A stretch of 64,000 nt of DNA from Candidatus Poribacteria bacterium. GTDB taxonomy: Bacteria; Poribacteria; WGA-4E; PCPOR2b. The DNA lies in NCBI GenBank assembly GCA_965116925.1, contig OZ220744.1:2080001-2144000 (forward strand). Direction: 5' to 3'. This document shows positions 12,445 through 40,056 of the stretch, one piece after another. The translations under genes and the position numbers were made by a program. Numbering within the stretch: the first letter of the stretch is position 1; the number at the start of each line of letters is the position of its first letter. The notes under the pieces are model-generated. The model was not told the origin of the DNA. It saw nothing but the letters and a program-made list of their open reading frames with translations, and did no database searches.

Positions 12445-13641
12445 GTGCACAAAAGCGGTCAAAAAAGTATCTATCAGATATTAACCCCCATTCTGTTTCT
12501 TACTGGGATTCTCTTTTTTACGTTTCTTTCGCGGGTTGTTTTTTCACCGCTGCTGGTGCTAATTGAGGAAGAGCTTCACCTATCCCATGCGAAATCGGGA
12601 AGTCTGTTTCTCCTCATCTCTATCGGATTTGCTCCGGTAATGTTGGGGTCAGGTTTTGTCTCTCAAAGGCTTACACATCGGGGGACAATCCTGCTTTCGT
12701 CAATAACGTGTGGGTTGGCAGTTCTTCTAATCGCTTTCAACCCTTCGCTGATGGGCATTCAAATCGGTATGGTCGTACTTGGCGTGGGATCTGGACTCTA
12801 TTTTCCATCGGCGATGGCGACGATGACCCGTTTGGTCGGTCCTGAACATTGGGGAAAAGCGATTTCGCTGCATGAGGCGGGACCTACGATGGGATATGTT
12901 CTCGCACCTATGGTTGCCGAATTGGGGTTAAGTTTTACATCGTGGCGGGGTGTCCTAATAATTGTTGGTGTTGCAGGTTTAATGATGGCTGCGATATTCG
13001 CGCTATTTGGCAAGGGCGGCAGATTTGCCGGTGAGCCTCCACGCTTAGATAACGTCGGAGAAATCTTTCGTCAGCCCTCATTTTGGGTGATCGCTATCTT
13101 GATGAGTTTGGCTTGCGGGGCGAGCGTCGGGGTTTACGCAATTCTACCAGTCTATCTTATCAGCGAACAGGGACTAGACCAAGGCTTGGTGAATACCCTC
13201 GTAGGGCTCTCACGGCTATCTGGGCTTGTTGCTGTTTTTCTTGCCGGCTGGTTAGCGGATCGCTTTGGCGCGAAGCGGGTCATGGGAGGGATTTATACCG
13301 CAACCGCTATTTTGACAGGACTGATGGGTTTTGACCAGAAGATTATCCTACTGATTGTGGTATTTCTCCAACCGGCGGTCGTTGCTGCTTTCTTCCCGGT
13401 TGGGCTGTTGGGGCTGGCAAACGTGGGACCTCCCCGCACTCGAAACGTTGCCGTCTCGTTGATGATTCCCTTTGTTTACCTGTTTGGTGCTGGAGTTGTC
13501 CCTGCTGGTATGGGGATCATGGGGGAATACTACGGATTTGCGCTTGGCTTTCTTTTGATGGGAGGGATGCTGTTAGCTAGCTTATGTCTCCTACTGTTTT
13601 TGCGTGACCAGCCAGAACCTGTGCCCGATCTTAGTAGATAG
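12445..13641 (+). CDS. MFS transporter
   Basis: About 12 TM helices, motif A GWLADRFGAKRV. Confidence 0.88.
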   Translation: MHKSGQKSIYQILTPILFLTGILFFTFLSRVVFSPLLVLIEEELHLSHAKSGSLFLLISIGFAPVMLGSGFVSQRLTHRGTILLSSITCGLAVLLIAFNPSLMGIQIGMVVLGVGSGLYFPSAMATMTRLVGPEHWGKAISLHEAGPTMGYVLAPMVAELGLSFTSWRGVLIIVGVAGLMMAAIFALFGKGGRFAGEPPRLDNVGEIFRQPSFWVIAILMSLACGASVGVYAILPVYLISEQGLDQGLVNTLVGLSRLSGLVAVFLAGWLADRFGAKRVMGGIYTATAILTGLMGFDQKIILLIVVFLQPAVVAAFFPVGLLGLANVGPPRTRNVAVSLMIPFVYLFGAGVVPAGMGIMGEYYGFALGFLLMGGMLLASLCLLLFLRDQPEPVPDLSR

Positions 13642-13765
13642 AGGAAAGCCTATCAGTGTAGCAGTTAGATATGAGCATACGATATTTCTACATGGAGTAG
13701 ATATTGTAAATCTTTATCGGTATCGGTAGATACAGAAAACCAATGCCGAAATGAGGTCAGAAACG

Positions 13766-14893
13766 ATGAAGATTCGACATATTCAAGCCTTTCCGCTTGC
13801 CTATCCAGAGCCACATTACAAAGGCATTGAACGGTATATCACGCTTGCCCGCGTAGAGACAGAAGATGGGGTGGTCGGTTGGGGGGAATGTATTTCACAG
13901 TTCCGGGAGGCGGCACTGGCAACCAAGATCATTATTGAGCAGGGGCTTGCACCCTTGCTTATCGGTGAGGATGCGATAGATGTAGACCGGCTCTGGCACA
14001 TAATGCAGTCCCGTATCTGGTGGTATGGACCTGAAGGGATTGCTGCCTTCGGGGTGAGTGCCTTGGATATGGCACTCTGGGATGTGAAAGGGAAAGCACT
14101 GGGCTTGCCCGTTTGCCGATTGCTAGGAGGACAGTTGCACGACAAAGTCGTTGCGATGGCGTCCTTTATCTTTGATATGGAAGATTTTGACTGGACGCTC
14201 AATGAATTTCGTTTTCTCAAGGAGGCGGGATATCAGGTTGTCAAAGCTGGCTGGGGTATGCGACCGGAGGCACTCTTCGGTCAAAATCGGCAGCGCGACA
14301 TTGAAATTGTCCGACGGGTGCGAGAGGTTATCGGCGATGACTTGGAACTAATTGTTGATACACCTGGGCATCACCGTCTCTGGGACGTTCCGACCGCGAT
14401 TCAGCGTTTCCGAGACCTGGAGCCGTATCGACTTCGATGGATTGAGCAGCCACTGCCGCCTCACGACCTTGAAGGACATGCCCGACTCCGGGCAGCGGTT
14501 GCCACTCCCATCGGCACGGGTGAGGATGAGTGGAACGTCGAGAGTTACCGGCGTCTGATTCAGTCAGGGGGTATTGACGTGGTGCAGATAGACCCTGGTC
14601 GTTGCCACGGCATCACCGGTTCTCTCCACGTCATCAAACTTATCGAGGCAGAAAGTCTGGAGTTCAGCTTTCACACGTGGAGCAGTGCGCTTAACACGGC
14701 TGCTAGCCTACACCTGCTTGCCGGTTCGACACATGGTGTGGCAATGGATTTCAAGCCGCATGAATCACCAATGCAACACGAATTGGTCAGCGATCCATGG
14801 GTTCAGGAAGATGGTTATCTCACCGTGCGGGAAACCCCTGGCTTGGGGGTTCAGGTACGCGAAGATACTGTACAGAAATATTTATTTAGCTGA
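13766..14893 (+). CDS. Mandelate racemase/muconate lactonizing enzyme family protein
   Basis: VETEDGVVGWGE, SALDMALWDVKGKALGLPV, WIEQP, TGEDE; start at ATG 13766 after GAGG. Confidence 0.92.
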   Translation: MKIRHIQAFPLAYPEPHYKGIERYITLARVETEDGVVGWGECISQFREAALATKIIIEQGLAPLLIGEDAIDVDRLWHIMQSRIWWYGPEGIAAFGVSALDMALWDVKGKALGLPVCRLLGGQLHDKVVAMASFIFDMEDFDWTLNEFRFLKEAGYQVVKAGWGMRPEALFGQNRQRDIEIVRRVREVIGDDLELIVDTPGHHRLWDVPTAIQRFRDLEPYRLRWIEQPLPPHDLEGHARLRAAVATPIGTGEDEWNVESYRRLIQSGGIDVVQIDPGRCHGITGSLHVIKLIEAESLEFSFHTWSSALNTAASLHLLAGSTHGVAMDFKPHESPMQHELVSDPWVQEDGYLTVRETPGLGVQVREDTVQKYLFS

Positions 14894-14905
14894 GAGCGTT
14901 TACAG

Positions 14906-15865
14906 ATGAGTTCACATGTCGTCGGTATCGACATCGGTGGAACAAAACTTGCCACGGTTGTCGCTGATAAAGATGGAAATATACTTCAAAAGGTGCGTAA
15001 GCCGACCGAATCAGAGAGGGGCCCTCGTCATGCAGTACAGCTGCTTCTGCAGATGGTTAATGAGGTGATCGATTTGGGGGGATTGCGGCGCGAAGACATC
15101 TCCGGGATTGGTGTAAGCTGCGGTGGCCCCCTCGACACGAAAACTGGTATTATCTATTCTCCGCCAAATCTGCCGGGGTGGGATGCACTGCCGTTGAAGG
15201 AGATGATTGAGTCAGAGTACCATATTCCTACCATCATTGAGAATGATGCAAATGCTAGCGCACTTGCGGAAGCGCGATTTGGAGGTGGACGTGGCTACGA
15301 CTATGTCCTCTATATGACAATGAGTACAGGCATCGGCGGCGGCATCGTTGCAAATGGAAAAATCTATCACGGTGCGAATGACAGCGCAGGGGAGGTTGGG
15401 CATCAGATCTTGCTCCCCGACGGTCCCCTCTGTGGGTGTGGTCAGTATGGGTGTCTGGAAGCCTTGTGTTCAGGACCTGCCATTGCGCGTCGTGCACAGG
15501 GGGCGATTACGGATCAACCTCATACGAGAATTCTAGTGCTCGCGGACGGGCAGATTGATCGCGTCAGATCGGAGCATGTGCTCCAAGCTGCGCGGGATGG
15601 TGATGCGTTGGCAATCGCTTTAGTGGAAGAGACAGCGTACTACATGGGTTGGGGGATTGCGAATCTCGTCAATATCTTAAACCCCCAAATCGTTTTACTC
15701 GGAACAATTGCGGTTGCTGCCGGTGACTTGCTACTAGACCCAATTCGACGCACCGTAACGGAAATGGCAATGCAACGTCCCTTGGAATCTGTTAAAATTA
15801 TGCCAGCGGAATTGGGTAATTCCATCGGTGACCTTGCTGCAATTTCGTTGGTAATTGACAGTTAG
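14906..15865 (+). CDS. ROK family sugar kinase
   Basis: VGIDIGGTK, ENDANASALAE, STGIGGG, GEVGH...CGCGQYGCLEA. Confidence 0.93.
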   Translation: MSSHVVGIDIGGTKLATVVADKDGNILQKVRKPTESERGPRHAVQLLLQMVNEVIDLGGLRREDISGIGVSCGGPLDTKTGIIYSPPNLPGWDALPLKEMIESEYHIPTIIENDANASALAEARFGGGRGYDYVLYMTMSTGIGGGIVANGKIYHGANDSAGEVGHQILLPDGPLCGCGQYGCLEALCSGPAIARRAQGAITDQPHTRILVLADGQIDRVRSEHVLQAARDGDALAIALVEETAYYMGWGIANLVNILNPQIVLLGTIAVAAGDLLLDPIRRTVTEMAMQRPLESVKIMPAELGNSIGDLAAISLVIDS

Positions 15866-15953
15866 CGTGGAAGGAATCGGTTTAACCAGTGCTGACAAAA
15901 ACCAATTTCGCAGAACTATACACTATCTGACTGAAATTTGGAGATGATGATTC

Positions 15954-16532
15954 ATGGATCGTATACAAGAGTATATTTCACATCTACAGGGTGTGTTGGA
16001 ACGTCTTTCTTTAGCCGATGTTCGCCAATCTATCGATCTTGTGATGGAGACATATCAGGCGGATCGGCAAATTTTCGTCATCGGCAACGGCGGCAGCGCG
16101 TCTACTGCGTCACACATTGCCACTGATTTGGGTAAAGGAGCAAGTGTACCCGGAGTGCGTCGCTTTCGGGTGATTAGTCTAACCGATAATGTTGCCACAA
16201 TGACGGCGTGGTCAAACGATGTGTGTTATGAAGATGTGTTTGTTGAGCAACTCAAAAACTTGGTCAATCCGGGCGATTTGGTGATTGCCATCAGCGCGAG
16301 CGGTAACTCTGAAAACGTCATTCGGGCGATCTACCACGCTAAGGCTATTGGTTGTAAAACCATCGGTTGGACAGGGTTCGGCGGCGGAAAGCTCCGGGAG
16401 ATGACGGATGTCAGTGTTGTTGTGGACAGCCATGACTACGGACCTGTTGAAGATGTGCACCTCATCCTCAACCATATCCTTCATTCTTGGATTCGGAAAG
16501 AGCTTACAGATTCAGAATTGAAGTTGGATTAG
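15954..16532 (+). CDS. SIS-domain phosphosugar isomerase (GmhA-like)
   Basis: IGNGGSASTASH, AWSND...VFVEQL, ISASGNSENV, VEDVHL. Confidence 0.9.
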   Translation: MDRIQEYISHLQGVLERLSLADVRQSIDLVMETYQADRQIFVIGNGGSASTASHIATDLGKGASVPGVRRFRVISLTDNVATMTAWSNDVCYEDVFVEQLKNLVNPGDLVIAISASGNSENVIRAIYHAKAIGCKTIGWTGFGGGKLREMTDVSVVVDSHDYGPVEDVHLILNHILHSWIRKELTDSELKLD

Positions 16533-16557
16533 GATAAAAACAGAAAGGAGACAGCAC

Positions 16558-17457
16558 GTGCAATATAGGAAACTTGGACGCACAGAGCTAGAGGTGTCGG
16601 AACTCGGTTTCGGGGCATGGCACATCGGTTGGACACCGCCGCAAGAGGGAGATGAAGTCGGACAGCTTCTGAATCGCGCGCTTGATGCTGGTGTCAATTT
16701 TATTGATTCATCGGCGGCGTATCGTTGGAGCGAAGAACTGATTGCCAAGTACATCGGTCATCGTCAAGATGAGTTTTATTTCGCCACCAAGTGTGGATCA
16801 TGGCGGGTGCAGCAACCAGATGGTGAATGGGTACAAACCTTGGACTACTCCGCCAAAGCTATTGAGCCGCAGATTGACCGGAGCCTGCAGCGACTGAAGA
16901 CGGACTGTATTGATATCATGCAACTGCACAGTCCCAAGTATGATGATGTCGCTTTCGGCGACGGGTTGGAAGGACTCAAGAAGGCGCAGAAAGCAGGGAA
17001 AATTCGATTTGTCAGCCTATCTGCGGACGGGGATACTGCGCTCAAGGCAATTGAGATTGGTGAGTACGATACGCTGCAGCTCACCTACAATGTGCTGCAG
17101 CAGGACCCCGCGGAAGTCATTGCTGCCGCACGCGAAAAGGATATGGGCATCATCATCAAAGGTCCAATTGCGAATGCCATTTATGAACAATCACATCCTG
17201 ATGAAAGCAACGCCAAGACGTGGTACAACGCCCGGAAGATTCTTGCCCCGGAGGTGATAGGCGATATGTCCCGCGTAGAGGCTTCACTGCGGTGGCTGCT
17301 CTGCGATTCAGATGTTCACACCGCCATTGTTGGCACAACCAACATCGATCACTTTGAGGATAATCTCGCCGCTACAGAGCGCGGTCGGTTACCTGACGAG
17401 ATGCTATCGGAAATTAGAAGTCGGTTTGAACAGGTAAGGGCGGAGGGTGTTGAATAG
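16558..17457 (+). CDS. Aldo/keto reductase
   Basis: YRKLGRTELEVSELGFG, GVNFIDSSAAY, SLQRLKTDCIDIMQLH. Confidence 0.92.
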   Translation: MQYRKLGRTELEVSELGFGAWHIGWTPPQEGDEVGQLLNRALDAGVNFIDSSAAYRWSEELIAKYIGHRQDEFYFATKCGSWRVQQPDGEWVQTLDYSAKAIEPQIDRSLQRLKTDCIDIMQLHSPKYDDVAFGDGLEGLKKAQKAGKIRFVSLSADGDTALKAIEIGEYDTLQLTYNVLQQDPAEVIAAAREKDMGIIIKGPIANAIYEQSHPDESNAKTWYNARKILAPEVIGDMSRVEASLRWLLCDSDVHTAIVGTTNIDHFEDNLAATERGRLPDEMLSEIRSRFEQVRAEGVE

Positions 17458-17489
17458 GAATTATCACACATCTGAAACTTAAAGAAAGG

Positions 17490-17548
17490 AACGCAAGGAT
17501 GCAAAGAAAAAAAAATAAAAAAACCTTGTGCCTTTGCGTCTTTGCGTT
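17490..17548. repeat. Inverted repeat of CTTTGCGT-type 8-mers around an A-rich loop (possible terminator or repeat element)
   Basis: AACGCAAGGATGCAAAG ... CTTTGCGTCTTTGCGTT. Confidence 0.55.
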
Positions 17549-17559
17549 AAAATAACAAT

Positions 17560-18423
17560 ATGCTACGATATGTTTTTGCCGTGATGTTTTTTGTATTGAC
17601 AGCGTCCATCTCGCACGGCTTGAAGGTGGGTGATAGTGCTTTAGAAACTACCTTCACGTCCGGTGACAAGCAGCTTAAATTCGCTGATTTTCATGGGAAA
17701 TCCAACCTCATCGTTGTAGGAGATGCAGCGAAGTACCCACAATTTATTTCCCAGCTGGAGCGGAAAGCAGAAGAATTCAAAACTGCGTATGACGCAACAA
17801 TCTTGCGTGTACAAGAGGAGATTGGAATCTTTGTCATTGATAAGTCGGGATATGTGCGTTGGAAGTTTCTCGCTGATGTTGGTCTGGCACAGTCTGCAAT
17901 TGGAAAACTCGAATCTGAGTTGGTAAAGCTCAAACGCGATAGTCCATTGCCGATTGGTTCACCGGCACCGGATTTTCGGCTCGTGGATGCAGAAAGTGGC
18001 CTCCTTTTCAGCCTTTCCACATACAAAGAGAAAAAGCATGTATTGGTTACGCTGTTGTTGCAAACCTACTGACCACATTGTGCCAATTTTACGTCGCAGT
18101 TTGCGACGAATCGTCAGTTATTGGATGAGAAGTATGATACCGTTGTTGTTGCTATCAAACCCGAACCGAAACCGGTTGTCTTTCGCTTCAAGGACCCGGT
18201 AACAATGGACGTGCCGCTGTTAGCCGATCCCGGATCCTCTATTCATGAAGCATACGGAATTGTTAAACCGTATCGCTTTCACAACCGGGATATGTATCTA
18301 CCGGCAACACTCCTCATTGACAAACAGGGCATTTTGAGGTGGATGTATATTGGGGTGAAAAACTCGGACCGCCCTAGTTTGGATTCGATTGTCGAACAAC
18401 TTGAAAAATTGAACACCGAATGA
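17560..18423 (+). CDS. Predicted selenoprotein: exported AhpC/TSA (peroxiredoxin-like) protein with UxxC motif, 287 aa
   Basis: ORFs 17560..18072 and 18121..18423 are in the same frame. Reading through TGA 18070-72 gives LLLQTY-U-PHC-ANFTSQF..., at the CxxC position of a Prx-like fold (GSPAPDFRL ... PLLADPG ... PATLLIDKQGILRW). A SECIS hairpin follows, and there is an N-terminal signal peptide. Confidence 0.88.
18068..18118 (+). promoter_or_regulatory. Bacterial SECIS element
   Basis: Stem CGTCGCA (18092-98)/TGCGACG (18102-08) with a G-first apical loop GTT 26 nt after UGA. A lower stem ACTGAC (18068-73)/GTCAGT (18113-18) includes the UGA. Confidence 0.8.
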
Positions 18424-18439
18424 ATCGTAGGAGTATACC

Positions 18440-19687
18440 ATGACCTCAAAAGATTTTATCGTCAAAGACATTGAACGGATTGTGCTAAACATACCTTTCC
18501 ACCCCCGTTGTGCCCATGTAAAAGAGGTGCGTGTCTCCGACTGGTCGATCGTGGAGTTGTGCAAGGTGACCACAGCTTCGGGAGTTGTTGGAATCGGGGA
18601 GACGCTTCCGCATTACACATGGGGCAGATCAGGAGACGAACAGTTTAATCGGGTGCGCGATCGGAATATCTTTGAATTTCTAATGGACGACAGTCTCGGT
18701 GCTGGGCTACAAATGGCACTGTTCGATGCCGCCGGCAAATTGCTGGATGTGCCGTGCCATCGCCTGATGGGATCGCAGTATCGCGAGACCTGTCCGGTGT
18801 CTTGGTGGGCACAAGACATGAAACCCGAAGAGTGGGCAGCCGAAGCAAAAACGGCGGAAGCACACGGTTTTACAAATATTAAGGTGAAAGCGCGTCCTTG
18901 GTTTGACATTGACCAACAGTTAGGGGCGGTCTGTGAAGCGGTATCACCTCACTTTAAGTTGGACGCAGATTTCAATGGATTGCTGTTGCGTATAGATTTG
19001 GCTGCGCCGTTAATCAGTCGTCTGGAACAGAAATACAGCAATCTGGCGATTGTGGAATCCCCTATTCCACAAGAGGATGTGGAGGGAAATGCGCTGCTCC
19101 GACAAAAAATCCGTACTCCGATTGCCATGCACATGGGTAACCCGCCGGTTATGACCGCGATCCGGGAGGGTGTGTGTGATGGATTTGTCATTGGTGGAGG
19201 TGTTAACCGCACCTTGAAGGATGGTATTCTGGCAGAACGGGCGCAGATGCCGTTCTGGTTGCAGATGGTCGGAACTGGGTTGACCACGATGTTCTCTGTC
19301 CATTTGGGAGCGGTGTTGGAGAGTGCTCGTTGGCCTGCCATTCCATGTATCAATATTTTCTCTCACAACTTGCTCAAGGAATTTAAGGTGGAGGGTGGCC
19401 ATGTCAAAGTGCCAGAAAGTCCGGGGCTGGGCGTTGAACTCGACTGGGAGGCGATAGAGCAGTGTCGTGTTGAACCCGATTTCAAGAAACCGGTTGCACG
19501 TCAGATTCACACTATTTTGTGGCCCGATGGGCGGCAAACGCACTATCCGGATGGTAGTTATCGATCGGTTTTTCTTGCGGGCAAACTTCCGCCGTTCCTA
19601 CCGGGTGTTTCCTTAGAACGTCGCTTGGATGACGGCTCGGAAACGTTTGATCGGGAGTATCGGGAACTATTCCCCGAAACAAGTTGA
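18440..19687 (+). CDS. Enolase-superfamily (mandelate racemase/MLE-like) enzyme
   Basis: GVVGIGET, MALFDAAGK, KVKARP, DADFN, VESP, PESPGLGVELD. Confidence 0.88.
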   Translation: MTSKDFIVKDIERIVLNIPFHPRCAHVKEVRVSDWSIVELCKVTTASGVVGIGETLPHYTWGRSGDEQFNRVRDRNIFEFLMDDSLGAGLQMALFDAAGKLLDVPCHRLMGSQYRETCPVSWWAQDMKPEEWAAEAKTAEAHGFTNIKVKARPWFDIDQQLGAVCEAVSPHFKLDADFNGLLLRIDLAAPLISRLEQKYSNLAIVESPIPQEDVEGNALLRQKIRTPIAMHMGNPPVMTAIREGVCDGFVIGGGVNRTLKDGILAERAQMPFWLQMVGTGLTTMFSVHLGAVLESARWPAIPCINIFSHNLLKEFKVEGGHVKVPESPGLGVELDWEAIEQCRVEPDFKKPVARQIHTILWPDGRQTHYPDGSYRSVFLAGKLPPFLPGVSLERRLDDGSETFDREYRELFPETS

Positions 19688-19725
19688 CAATACCTACCTC
19701 ACTGGCTTTAGCCAAAGGAGTGGCG

Positions 19726-20913
19726 ATGAACTTTTCAAATTCGGGGGTATCTTCCTTTACAATTCCGCCGACCGTTATCACCGGTATCGGTGCGGCGGAG
19801 CAGGTCGGCGAGCAAGCGAAACGCTTGGACGGAGAGAAGGCGTTGGTTGTGACTGATCCGGGGATTTCCAAACTCGGTTATGCCGATGGGACTGTAAAAC
19901 AGCTGAACGCCGTGGGGATTGACGCGTCCATTTTTGAGGACGTGACACCGGATCCAACGCTGCAAAACGTCAATGACGGTTTGGAACAGTACTGTAGCGA
20001 TGCTTGCAATCTGATTGTCAGTATTGGCGGCGGCAGCGCGATTGATTGTGGAAAGGGTATCGCTGTAAAATTGACCAACGATGCCCCCCTTGTAGAGTAT
20101 ATGGGTGTGAACAAGATTCCCAATCCGGGGGCCCCGCTTATCGCCATCCCGACGACAGCCGGGACCGGCAGCGAGTGTACAAAAGTTACGGTGCTTACCG
20201 ACACTGAGCGAAACGTGAAGATGATGCTCAGTAGCCCGTGTCTGCTGGCGCAGGTCGCGCTTATCGATCCGCTGTTGTCGTTGACGACACCGCCACATCT
20301 GACAGCAGCAGTTGGGATTGATGCCCTGACACATGCTATCGAAGCTTACATCTCCAAACGTGCTCAACCGATCACCGACGCCCTGTCCCTGAAGGCGGTT
20401 CGTTTAATCTCCGGTTCCATGCGGCAAGCGTGGGCGAGTGGTGAGAATATTGAGGCGCGAACGGATATGATGATTGGGGCTTCCATCGCTGGTATGGCGT
20501 TTAGCAATTCATCTGTGGCGTTGGTGCACGGGATGTCCCGCCCGATCGGGGCATACTTCCATATCCACCACGGCTTATCAAACTCCGTTTTGCTGTTAGA
20601 TGTTATGGAGTTCAGCGTTGTTGGCACCCCTGCTCGCTTCGCCGATATTGCCCGGGCAATGGGTGAACCGACTGAGGGGTTGTCACTGATGGGGCAGGCA
20701 GATCGCGCAGTTGCAGCGGTAGAGCGATTGATTAACGATATTCAAATGCCGCGCCTGGGGGAGATTGGCATTGATCTGAACAAGTTTGAGGCGGTCGTGG
20801 ATCAGATGGCATCGGACGCCATTGAGAGCGGTAGCCCCGCCAATAACCCGCGCCAGCCAACACACGAAGAGATTGTCGCGTTGTATCGGAGATGCTTCGC
20901 AGAACGGAAGTAG
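19726..20913 (+). CDS. Iron-containing alcohol dehydrogenase
   Basis: IGGGSAIDCGK, IPTTAGTGSE, DALTHAIEAY, HGMS...HIHHG; SD AAGGAG before ATG 19726. Confidence 0.94.
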   Translation: MNFSNSGVSSFTIPPTVITGIGAAEQVGEQAKRLDGEKALVVTDPGISKLGYADGTVKQLNAVGIDASIFEDVTPDPTLQNVNDGLEQYCSDACNLIVSIGGGSAIDCGKGIAVKLTNDAPLVEYMGVNKIPNPGAPLIAIPTTAGTGSECTKVTVLTDTERNVKMMLSSPCLLAQVALIDPLLSLTTPPHLTAAVGIDALTHAIEAYISKRAQPITDALSLKAVRLISGSMRQAWASGENIEARTDMMIGASIAGMAFSNSSVALVHGMSRPIGAYFHIHHGLSNSVLLLDVMEFSVVGTPARFADIARAMGEPTEGLSLMGQADRAVAAVERLINDIQMPRLGEIGIDLNKFEAVVDQMASDAIESGSPANNPRQPTHEEIVALYRRCFAERK

Positions 20914-20918
20914 ACGCT

Positions 20919-21677
20919 TCAAATCGATAAGATATATCTTTGTGCCTCGCTCAGACGAGCGTGTGTTTCTGGATGGATAAATTTGCGTTGGTCGGTCAAC
21001 TGCTTGTGATCGCGACGGCAGTAGTAAGCGAGCATCCCGTGGCGTAGGGAGCCGGTTTGATTCAACCCGCCCGCGTGCCAGAGATGTGAATTAAAGACAA
21101 TGACAGTTCCTGCTGCTGCTATCAATTGGATTTCCTCTGGGTGATGTTGTGTTGCGTCCTCCAATGCGTCCTTGGGGTGTTTACCGCTACGATGGGAACC
21201 CGGTACAACCCGCGTTGCGCCGTTCTCCTCCGTAAAATCGTCTAGTAGCCACATGGAGTTACAAACGTAGTAATCGCCCGGCTCTACCCCTGAACGCCAG
21301 TCTGCGTGAAACGCTTGGTGCCCTTGCCCGGGCAGCGCCATCCGGCAATCCAGCGAGGACAACTTGAACCTAGGACCGATAACATGCTCTATGGCAGCAA
21401 GCACGCGCGGGTGTGAAAAGCCTATCTGGAACATTGGACCTTTATTGACAAGATTGCTTACCCGGATTGTTCCGTCCTCCTGATGAAGTTCCTTACCGGC
21501 ATCTTCTCCTTCCAGTTCTGCCAATTTGTCCAACCGACGAATCATGTTCGCAATCTGTTCTGGGGTGAGAATCCTCCCAAGTGGGAGATAGCCGTTTAGA
21601 TCCAAGAAGTCCTTTTCTTTTTCCGATAGTGTGTTGTTCCGGACACCAGATTCTAGTAAGGCTTGATTCATGTTCAT
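20919..21677 (-). CDS. Phytanoyl-CoA dioxygenase (PhyH) family Fe(II)/2OG oxygenase
   Basis: HAD ... ENGATRVVPGSH ... LWHAG facial triad; SD GGAGA before ATG 21677. Confidence 0.9.
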   Translation of the reverse strand: MNMNQALLESGVRNNTLSEKEKDFLDLNGYLPLGRILTPEQIANMIRRLDKLAELEGEDAGKELHQEDGTIRVSNLVNKGPMFQIGFSHPRVLAAIEHVIGPRFKLSSLDCRMALPGQGHQAFHADWRSGVEPGDYYVCNSMWLLDDFTEENGATRVVPGSHRSGKHPKDALEDATQHHPEEIQLIAAAGTVIVFNSHLWHAGGLNQTGSLRHGMLAYYCRRDHKQLTDQRKFIHPETHARLSEAQRYILSI

Positions 21678-21737
21678 TGTCAATCTCTCCTTTTTCAACT
21701 CTCCGCTGTCCCGTTTTCAGGTTTTCTCGTTTTCCCG

Positions 21738-38772: not shown

Positions 38773-40056
38773 TCAATCGCTCATCTCATCACCAAAGAAG
38801 TATTGTTGCCAATTGGTAATGTTGCCGTACTCGTCCATGTTGAGCTGTTCAATTTCGGAAGTGCCATCGTTGACTTGGCAGAAATAGAGTGCCGTATCAG
38901 ACGCTGGAATCTCCTCCTCGGCGATGCGTCGTTGCAGGCGTCGCAGCAGATGTTCGCTGTGGGTCTCAAGGATAATCTGGATATTCCGATTTTTTACCAC
39001 GTCGATGAGGATATCCGTTAGATCCGCCTGCGCTTTCGGATGCAGATGTGCCTCAGGTTGTTCAAGGATGAGGATTGAACCTTCGGGGACATAATAGCAG
39101 AGTGCCAACGTCGGCAGGATCTGGAAAACACCCAAGCCGATGTCAGTGAGTCGGACTTCGGGACCGTCCTTGTACTGTTTGAGGCGAAATTCGTAGTCCT
39201 TCTCCCCATCAGGATCCGCTTGGAGACGATAGGAATCAATCAGTTCCAGTCGTTGTAACCATTTCAATATCTGCTCATCGATGGAGAGGAGTTGAATCCG
39301 TCCGGAAAGCAGTGCGGCAATTGCCTGTTCCCCGTACTGTCCGACACCTTTCGGGTGTTCACCGCCGTATGCGTAGCGATGTCGAGGCGGTTCACGGAGC
39401 GGGCTAAGGTGATAGATTCGAGAAAACAGGTCCTTGAAAGCCCGTTCAAACGACAAGAAAGGGGTATCTGGCACTCTAGTCGATCCGTCCCGAATCCCGT
39501 AGCATCGGAACGGGAATGAGGAGAGTGCCCCTTGGGGTTTATGGTTGGGGGGACATACTATTTTGTACTGACTGTCAGCATCCCGCACGATTCCAAAAAA
39601 TTCGTACCCATCGGACATATAACCGAAGCCATCGACAGCAACCGAATCATTTCCTGCAGCGACAATAGTGGTTGAAAAGGAGAGCGCGCCAATTTCGAGG
39701 CGATTGGAACCTTGAGGGGTTCGGGGCAGTGCCTGCCCAAGCGTACTCCCACCTCCAATAGTCAGCTTTTCAGGCAACTGCCACGACACAGAGATGTCGA
39801 GACTTAAACCCGTTTTGTGTCGATGGATGACCTCATTAAAGTTGGATAAGTTGACCACCGATCTCTCATCGCCGAAATCAATTACCCCGTTCCAATCCGG
39901 CGGACGCTCCGCGGTCTGCTTGAGCATGAGCAGCGTTTGAAAAATGCTGGTTTTGCCGGAGCTATTCGCGCCGAAGAACCCTGTCAATGGGGCTATCTGC
40001 AACTGACCCGTATTTTCCCACGACTTAAAATTCTGCGCGCTGAGTTCGGTAATCAT
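38773..40056 (-). CDS. ABC-type AAA ATPase (AAA_21/DUF3696-like), possibly truncated by a late nonsense codon
   Basis: NFKS, GANSSGKTS Walker A, LTDIGLGVFQILP, ILEQPEAHLHP, ETHSEH. After TGA the frame runs 15 more codons to TAA at 38727-25. Confidence 0.8.
   Translation of the reverse strand: MITELSAQNFKSWENTGQLQIAPLTGFFGANSSGKTSIFQTLLMLKQTAERPPDWNGVIDFGDERSVVNLSNFNEVIHRHKTGLSLDISVSWQLPEKLTIGGGSTLGQALPRTPQGSNRLEIGALSFSTTIVAAGNDSVAVDGFGYMSDGYEFFGIVRDADSQYKIVCPPNHKPQGALSSFPFRCYGIRDGSTRVPDTPFLSFERAFKDLFSRIYHLSPLREPPRHRYAYGGEHPKGVGQYGEQAIAALLSGRIQLLSIDEQILKWLQRLELIDSYRLQADPDGEKDYEFRLKQYKDGPEVRLTDIGLGVFQILPTLALCYYVPEGSILILEQPEAHLHPKAQADLTDILIDVVKNRNIQIILETHSEHLLRRLQRRIAEEEIPASDTALYFCQVNDGTSEIEQLNMDEYGNITNWQQYFFGDEMSD

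Follow-up and report, generated by a model that had tools for sequence, protein, structure and literature searches.

A Poribacteria gene apparently split by a stop codon almost certainly encodes a two-domain Prx-like selenoprotein with a predicted signal peptide

Selenoproteins designated "Prx-like thiol:disulfide oxidoreductase", which carry the PF00578 domain and a UxxC or UxxU motif, are listed in Table 1 of PMC13188914. A "Prx-like protein" with UxxC instead of TxxU was defined in PMC1088965, and 225 GOS sequences are assigned to "Prx-like 1" in PMC2398784. For the bacterial SECIS element (bSECIS), the consensus given in PMC13188914 comprises a loop of 3–9 nt with G in one of its first two positions and a stem of 4–16 bp, at a distance of 16–37 nt after the UGA. 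The class has been known since the mid-2000s and is abundant in marine data; a layout that combines a signal peptide with a Cys-free domain copy has apparently not been described. This agrees with a sequence-only reading of the DNA studied here, which had called Prx-like selenoproteins known and suspected that the secreted two-domain form was not: a search of the open-access literature, covering supplements only in the case of GOS, turned up no published work that deals with the protein, its layout or the selenoproteins of Poribacteria. Neither QTYU nor GTWUP occurs in the four GOS supplementary files of PMC2398784.

The gene described here lies in a window of 64,000 nucleotides from a Candidatus Poribacteria bacterium (contig OZ220744.1, positions 2,080,001 to 2,144,000), and all positions without a contig label refer to this whole stretch. 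Like the described Prx-like UxxC selenoproteins, its predicted product scores over the AhpC/TSA cut-off, carries UxxC rather than TxxU, has a putative SECIS element right after the UGA, possesses Cys homologues and comes from a marine source; on these features it fits within that PF00578 class. Unlike them, it has a predicted signal peptide, what is likely a second copy of the domain, free of Cys and shortened by internal deletion, and a subfamily signature composed of LLQTY-U-P-x-C, KP, YxFH and NxDR. The locus adds a well-supported, mis-annotated selenoprotein and supplies a Sec member for a widespread, unstudied CxxC subfamily, and it does not change the understanding of Sec insertion or of Prx-like proteins.

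An in-frame TGA and a conserved hairpin

With TGA translated as U, positions 17560–18420 of the forward strand form one open frame of 287 residues with a single internal TGA, closed by a terminal TGA at 18421–18423. Across the phylum, 46 of the 176 genomes searched have an orthologue of the whole gene (17560–18423). Under translation table 11, the same stretch yields two ORFs of 170 aa (17560–18072) and 100 aa (18121–18423), which are the two frames that the sequence-only reading had joined through one UGA, and correctly so. The in-frame TGA (18070–18072) encodes the predicted selenocysteine U171, the first position of a UxxC motif (18070–18081) in the context LLQTY-U-PH-C. The expectation that standard annotation would split the gene is borne out by close database homologues: among the best 120 of 242, 118 end at this codon (QTY or QPY), two run out of frame before the Sec codon, and none reads through.

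A profile search of the 176 genomes returned 47 matches at E<=1e-25. Orthologues account for 46 of these (E<1e-100), and every one contains an internal TGA; the 47th is a different protein. Forty-two of the 46 orthologous loci were fetched, the remaining four genomes having one TGA inside the match. All 42 carry TGA, never TAA or TAG, at the Sec codon, which excludes a sequencing error, one of the doubts raised from the sequence alone. The final stop varies (TGA 28, TAG 9, TAA 4 in the 41 intact loci), and UxxC is present in 41/41 orthologues. Counts over 41 loci leave out L071 (genome G111), where the Sec TGA is preceded, at a distance of some 20 codons, by an extra in-frame TAG, either a lineage-specific loss or an assembly error.

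The coding evidence extends across the codon. The Pfam AhpC-TSA match (residues 132–261) runs over the TGA, and in-frame dN/dS among 20 same-genus sequences is 0.11 before it and 0.10 after it. In 144 aligned domains drawn from the best 150 distant representatives, the motif reads CxxC in 120, TxxC in 13 and WxxC in 2, and the closest Cys homologue, P0129, has LLLETVCPFC. No TGG was seen at the Sec codon among the orthologues. Homologues accordingly offer TGA or Cys rather than Trp, and the WxxC of P0132 is probably a gene-caller reading, because P0132 resembles a gene of G156 with a stop codon there.

The genome also encodes the machinery for insertion. A search for selA, selB, selC and selD, proposed earlier as a check, recovered all four: selA (532 bits), selB (373) and tRNA-Sec (selC, 76.6) are clustered at C1:2373933-2377236, and selD (369 bits) has an internal TGA of its own, all scoring over curated cut-offs. 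SelD (L025, G000:C1:6018658) is itself a predicted selenoprotein with the motif CG-U-AAK, and the hairpin there has a 4-nt loop with G in second position.

The candidate bacterial SECIS hairpin of the present gene occupies 18092–18108 (+) and consists of a 7-bp stem and a GUU loop, with a conserved core at 18095–18105. Its loop G is position 18099 (+27), which gives a spacing of 26 nt after the UGA. Stem, loop and distance lie within the bSECIS criteria of PMC13188914, and the G-first loop at bacterial SECIS spacing that had been noticed by eye is thereby confirmed. Stability alone is unremarkable: z is -1.64 at best, and 15 of 200 shuffles of 18080–18120 are equal or better. The 674 TGAs that terminate long stop-to-stop ORFs served as a control: 91 are followed by a loose bSECIS-like hairpin, 26 by one whose stem has at least 7 bp. 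Hairpin stability was rejected as evidence for a SECIS element, as it is not significant against shuffles or terminal-TGA controls.

It is the conservation of the hairpin, not its stability, that is beyond chance. The core CGCAG-x-T-x-GCG is kept in 42/42 loci, with three core pairs invariant in every one. Codons +7, +8 and +11, all in the stem, are the three most conserved of 46 synonymous columns (four- or six-fold degenerate codons with a conserved residue, 23 orthologues), and dS over the hairpin codons is 0.32 versus 0.77–1.01 in the two domains. Codon +8 is TCG (Ser, 28 loci) or GCG (Ala, 13 loci), the paired CG being kept in 41/41. The first 23 loci show a single compensatory replacement of G-C by A-U and are divided 12/11 between U-A and U-G; a covariation test based on counts gave a weak result (17 of 500 shuffles). 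Such clean evidence, in which the residue changes and the stem bases are kept, is useful for models of SelB recognition. A lower stem over the UGA (18068–18073 with 18113–18118), which the sequence-only reading took to sequester the codon, does form in some folds of the window's own sequence. It was dropped because it is not conserved across orthologues: its A-U pair occurs in 6 of 23 and 6 of 42, and its other pairs in 20–40 of 42.

Against recoding stands the reading of the TGA as a true stop (two genes or a pseudogene), as a Trp codon or as an error. TGA is common here (it ends 674 of 2255 long stop-to-stop ORFs), the hairpin does not reach significance by itself, and one genome has the extra upstream TAG. 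These readings are opposed by a codon that is TGA throughout the orthologues, with no TGG seen in any of them, that interrupts a single Pfam domain where CxxC has its first Cys, and that has purifying selection on both sides and a hairpin conserved at synonymous sites behind it. A contig of run X2, possibly the source sample itself, moreover spans 17773–18468 without a difference. We therefore give this group of explanations next to no credence. One Poribacteria gene, apparently split by a stop, almost certainly reads that codon as selenocysteine, and it is close to certain in our view that SelB would bind the hairpin 26 nt downstream and insert Sec171.

The region upstream of the gene (17538–17559) is A-rich and contains no Shine-Dalgarno motif, as is also the case in most orthologues of genus g1; GGAG precedes the gene in several other orthologues. 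A scan for sigma-70 promoters and terminators gave results at chance level. The sequence is present in sponge metagenome runs, and metatranscriptome contigs (X5, X6) cover the gene, from RNA libraries that may include DNA.

Signal peptide and Cys-free N-terminal domain

Residues 1–20 (17560–17619, +) constitute a predicted cleavable signal peptide, with one Arg, a hydrophobic core, S at -3, G at -1 and no lipobox Cys. The hydrophobic N-terminus that had suggested export at first sight is present, and its assignment follows a hand-made rule only, which identifies a signal peptide in 37 of 41 orthologues; the -1 residue is G, A or S in 39 of 41. Beyond this N-terminus, the protein has no hydrophobic segment. 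Export through the predicted signal peptide is probable on these sequence features, and the peptide would deliver the protein to the Sec translocon, with cleavage after Gly20 to be expected with good confidence.

The segment that follows, residues 21–126 (17620–17937, +), is a shortened, Cys-free thioredoxin-fold domain, which likely arose as a tandem copy of the catalytic one and then degenerated. The description of a shortened Cys-less Prx-like domain given in the sequence-only reading holds: both LKVGDSA and GIFVIDKSGYVRWKF are present, and the mature N-terminal domain of the window's copy has no Cys. Scattered Cys residues occur in only 3 of 41 orthologues. Domain length is 101–106 aa in 39 of the 41 and reaches 116 in G020 and 146 in G024. 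The 146-aa form (L050) is informative, as it scores as AhpC-TSA and aligns end to end with its own C-terminal domain, at 37% identity over 128 columns, with QQIDT replacing YUxxC. Used as a query against 151 genomes at E<=1e-12, this form matched only the present gene, mostly in the C-terminal domain.

The short forms have no Pfam match, are missing 40–50 internal residues and lack the central helix region. In the two-domain structure model (pLDDT 75.8), residues 32–125 match thioredoxins at Z 8.1–8.3, with an rmsd of 2.6–2.9 over 85–90 aligned residues. When the N-terminal domain was modelled by itself, the result was weak (pLDDT 57); its matches included many thioredoxin folds but were headed by an RNA cyclase domain (Z 7.4), a likeness that was taken as a common arrangement only. 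The dN/dS of the domain is 0.19, and it is therefore still under purifying selection.

Phylogenetic trees place the N-terminal domains just outside the C-terminal domains plus their Cys sisters, with unstarred support of 82/82 and, in a second tree that omits eight short N-terminal domains, 85/89. An exclusive sister relation between the N- and C-terminal domains was not recovered in either of the two trees, and a clade of the two is not rejected by an AU test (p 0.277). On the simplest reading, the catalytic domain was duplicated in tandem, and the N-terminal copy then lost its active site and was shortened by successive deletions. The orthologues offer what is probably a natural series in which a duplicated catalytic domain loses its active site, shrinks and stays under selection.

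The catalytic domain and its probable chemistry

The C-terminal domain, residues 129–287 (17944–18420, +), is a Prx-like (AhpC/TSA) domain with a PF00578 score of 66.1 bits against a cut-off of 26. In predicted fold it is close to AhpE and PRDX4 (Z 13.1), and its best neighbours in sequence and fold are peroxiredoxins of the BCP/AhpE/Prx1/4 type. The likeness to the peroxiredoxins BCP/PrxQ, AhpE and Sec-Prx amounts to fold matches at Z 12–13 and about 20–27% identity. Unlike these proteins, it has no PxxxT and no Arg, and its Sec stands at the Thr rather than the peroxidatic position: in an alignment to BCP, U171 falls on the Thr of PxxxTxxC and C174 on the peroxidatic residue, and PxxxT is absent in all orthologues. 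A true peroxiredoxin was rejected on the missing PxxxTxxC/U motif, on Pro in place of Arg and on 34 bits to NF006960 against a cut-off of 140. Of the earlier claim of a catalytic Sec domain, the Sec of UxxC and the PF00578 assignment stand, and the family is better described as Prx-like or thioredoxin-like than as a peroxiredoxin proper.

The Arg conserved in peroxiredoxins is catalytic. In the present protein, Pro248 (18301–18303, +) occupies the corresponding column. Pro is found there in 41/41 orthologues and in 101 CxxC homologue domains, whereas Bcp4 (3hjp) has Arg; the column is gapped and ambiguous in 3drn. Pro248 presumably represents the cis-Pro position of thioredoxins. Since Pro replaces the catalytic Arg of peroxiredoxins, the domain likely acts by thiol-disulfide exchange, possibly fed by the DsbD of this genome, which is encoded with N, TM and thioredoxin domains and is not adjacent to the gene.

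No NCBIfam model exceeds its cut-off for this protein. SelL-related redox protein NF040769 was discarded at 29.3 bits against 120, and ResA, TlpA and DsbE at 31/170, 13/230 and 15/359 bits, all far below cut-off. The protein resembles ResA/TlpA/DsbE(CcmG), which are periplasmic and DsbD-fed, in being a predicted exported CxxC-type thioredoxin-fold protein with Pro (Z 8.6–11), and it differs from them in its Sec, in its soluble rather than anchored form and in the extra dead domain.

Our main reading is of one 287-residue selenoprotein, likely an extracytoplasmic thiol-disulfide reductase that works through U-x-x-C, in which the dead domain docks or stabilises and DsbD recharges the active site; we put its probability at about 0.55. 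Recoding, family and architecture rest on the results presented here, and we infer substrate, partner and location. An envelope protein with a disulfide or an oxidised cysteine would be attacked there by the Sec171 selenolate; Cys174 would then resolve the mixed bond, leaving a selenenyl-sulfide. The full-length DsbD of the genome may then re-reduce this bond, a step proposed only from its presence. Non-catalytic thioredoxin domains act as docking or stabilising modules in PDI, and by analogy the N-terminal copy, having lost UxxC and about 40–50 internal residues, may serve the same purpose.

Against a reductase, the best sequence and fold matches are BCP, AhpE and Prx1/4, not the TlpA/ResA reductases, and this is where a peroxide or endoperoxide reductase gains ground. 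In such a protein, a selenolate reactive enough to dispense with Arg would reduce the peroxide and Cys174 would resolve the selenenic acid, protecting the envelope from host-derived oxidants. PRXL2B (prostamide/prostaglandin F synthase), a CxxC relative with a Prx-like fold and the same Pro, reduces the PGH2 endoperoxide with that Pro in trans, as described in PMC12938796, so peroxide-type chemistry is possible without Arg. It matches the model at Z 9.8 (rmsd 3.6, 123 aligned), and it differs in being eukaryotic and single-domain. Further hints are the fusion of the Cys homologue P0129 to a BCP-type domain and the Atlas clusters of the Cys sister P0205, which are automatically named "Peroxiredoxin Q/BCP", although automatic names are no tests. 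The lack of both PxxxT and Arg in all orthologues, together with a TxxU tandem peroxiredoxin already present in the genome, makes a peroxide reductase rather unlikely.

The pairing of catalytic and non-catalytic thioredoxin-fold domains, the export signal, the purifying selection on the N-terminal domain and a CPHC-type spacer in the window's copy would also suit a protein that isomerises disulfides or helps secreted proteins to fold, and whose dead domain binds unfolded clients as in PDI or DsbC. The spacer residue within UxxC varies freely among orthologues (H, S, F, R, V, Y, I), the N-terminal domain is eroding and has no central helix region, and the Cys sister subfamily is mostly one-domain, with 75 of 80 loci (the best 80 of 309) ending 119–136 residues past the motif. 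An isomerase is for these reasons improbable.

The subfamily signature K200-P201, Y238-x-F240-H241 and N268-x-D270-R271 (18157–18372, +) is invariant or nearly so in alignments A2 and A4, and A4, which includes the sister subfamily, has 18 invariant columns. These residues, common to the CxxC sisters, are a candidate substrate-binding surface. As a tentative extension to which we give well under even odds, the protein might be a Poribacteria-specific exported selenoenzyme that arose by domain doubling, its front copy, once a full Prx-like domain, cut down in steps (146, 116, then 101–106 residues) to little more than a thioredoxin core and kept as a dedicated non-catalytic module in a PDI-like "b-a" arrangement; the KP/YxFH/NxDR surface would then recognise a specific envelope substrate common to hundreds of Cys homologues.

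Cys sisters, distribution and further candidate selenoproteins

Both domains, P0129 and the CxxC subfamily with the motif HFLLKTECPxC form one clade in the two trees (99/96 and 99/95). This sister subfamily, with 309 confirmed loci in the genome collection, includes members from Bacteroidota, Verrucomicrobiota, Sumerlaeota and others; the best 80 of the 309 loci are labelled mostly Bacteroidota and Verrucomicrobiota. CxxC is present in all 80, by construction for the first Cys, as the scan pattern required it. The sisters share N-terminal signal-like segments (judged by eye) with the Poribacteria protein and differ from it in having Cys instead of Sec, in being mostly single-domain and in showing no dead copy.

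Some members of the subfamily are fused to YHS, TlpA-like or BCP domains. The YHS fusions (NF041384) are found in P0179, P0255, P0142 and P0230 and at loci L130, L144 and L149, with P0179 and P0255 over the cut-off. As the NF041384 family has selenoprotein members, this fusion may hint at a shared redox pathway. No dominant common neighbour emerged among the best 80 of 309 sister loci. Two Cys sisters, P0231 and P0243, have an anti-sigma-like N-terminus and a membrane segment; the likeness consists of weak, below-cut-off zf-HC2/DUF4880 matches in P0231 and was judged by eye in P0243. At 11 of the best 80 of 309 loci (L095, L106, L109 and eight more), the gene adjoins a presumably ECF-sigma-like ORF.

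These N-termini and neighbours could indicate a redox or metal sensor rather than an enzyme, in which UxxC reports envelope oxidation to a partner. The Poribacteria loci show no membrane anchor and no signalling neighbour, and in thioredoxins the conserved Pro reportedly works against the binding of metals; a sensor is accordingly very improbable.

Within the phylum, the distribution of the selenoprotein gene is patchy: it is found in 22 of 28 genomes of its own family and in 23 of 112 of a second family, and no orthologue was found in the other families searched. Neighbours differ between genera, so no pathway is defined and no substrate is given. The loci of genus g1 have an aldo-keto reductase gene on one side (19/20) and a mandelate-racemase-family gene on the other (17/20), and the gene belongs there to a same-strand run of sugar-acid type comprising MFS, two mandelate-racemase-family genes, ROK, SIS, aldo-keto reductase and Fe-ADH. 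This sugar-acid catabolism-like run of g1 stands apart from the tsaB-like gene that adjoins the selenoprotein gene elsewhere, the places concerned being window 12445–21698 and G000:C1:98151-98798. In the other genera, the gene is flanked by a TsaB/TsaD-family gene (19/22 loci) and a polysaccharide flippase gene (21/22); the flippase was not found in the window's genome with one query, and therefore no functional link is drawn. At locus L033 (G008), the usual downstream gene is replaced by a 439-codon ORF on the opposite strand, 354–1671 nt downstream of the TGA, whose start presumably resembles an IS605-family TnpB.

Other in-frame TGAs were encountered along the way. A crude scan picked out seven further TGAs joining open stretches with a Cys three residues away, at window positions 39517, 41101 and 27945 (+), 54764 (-) and three more; by eye, none is gene-like. 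Elsewhere in the window's genome (G000), three Prx-like genes (L090–L092) have in-frame TGAs, at C1:1526684-1527175 (+), 996556-997044 (+) and 4745366-4746229 (+), with the redox motifs W-U-P-N-S, W-U-G-S-C and a tandem pair each reading TGG-U-T; a clear G-loop hairpin follows three of their four TGAs. Locus L089 (G156:C867) has three in-frame stops in frame 2, two of them in Y-*-S-*-P, followed by HEAT repeats and a Prx-like domain with W-*-G-Y-C. The part with the Y-*-S-*-P motif is, we presume, rhodanese-like, and P0132, an apparent relative of L089, is called with W at the stop position of W-*-G-Y-C. L089 is a candidate triple selenoprotein.
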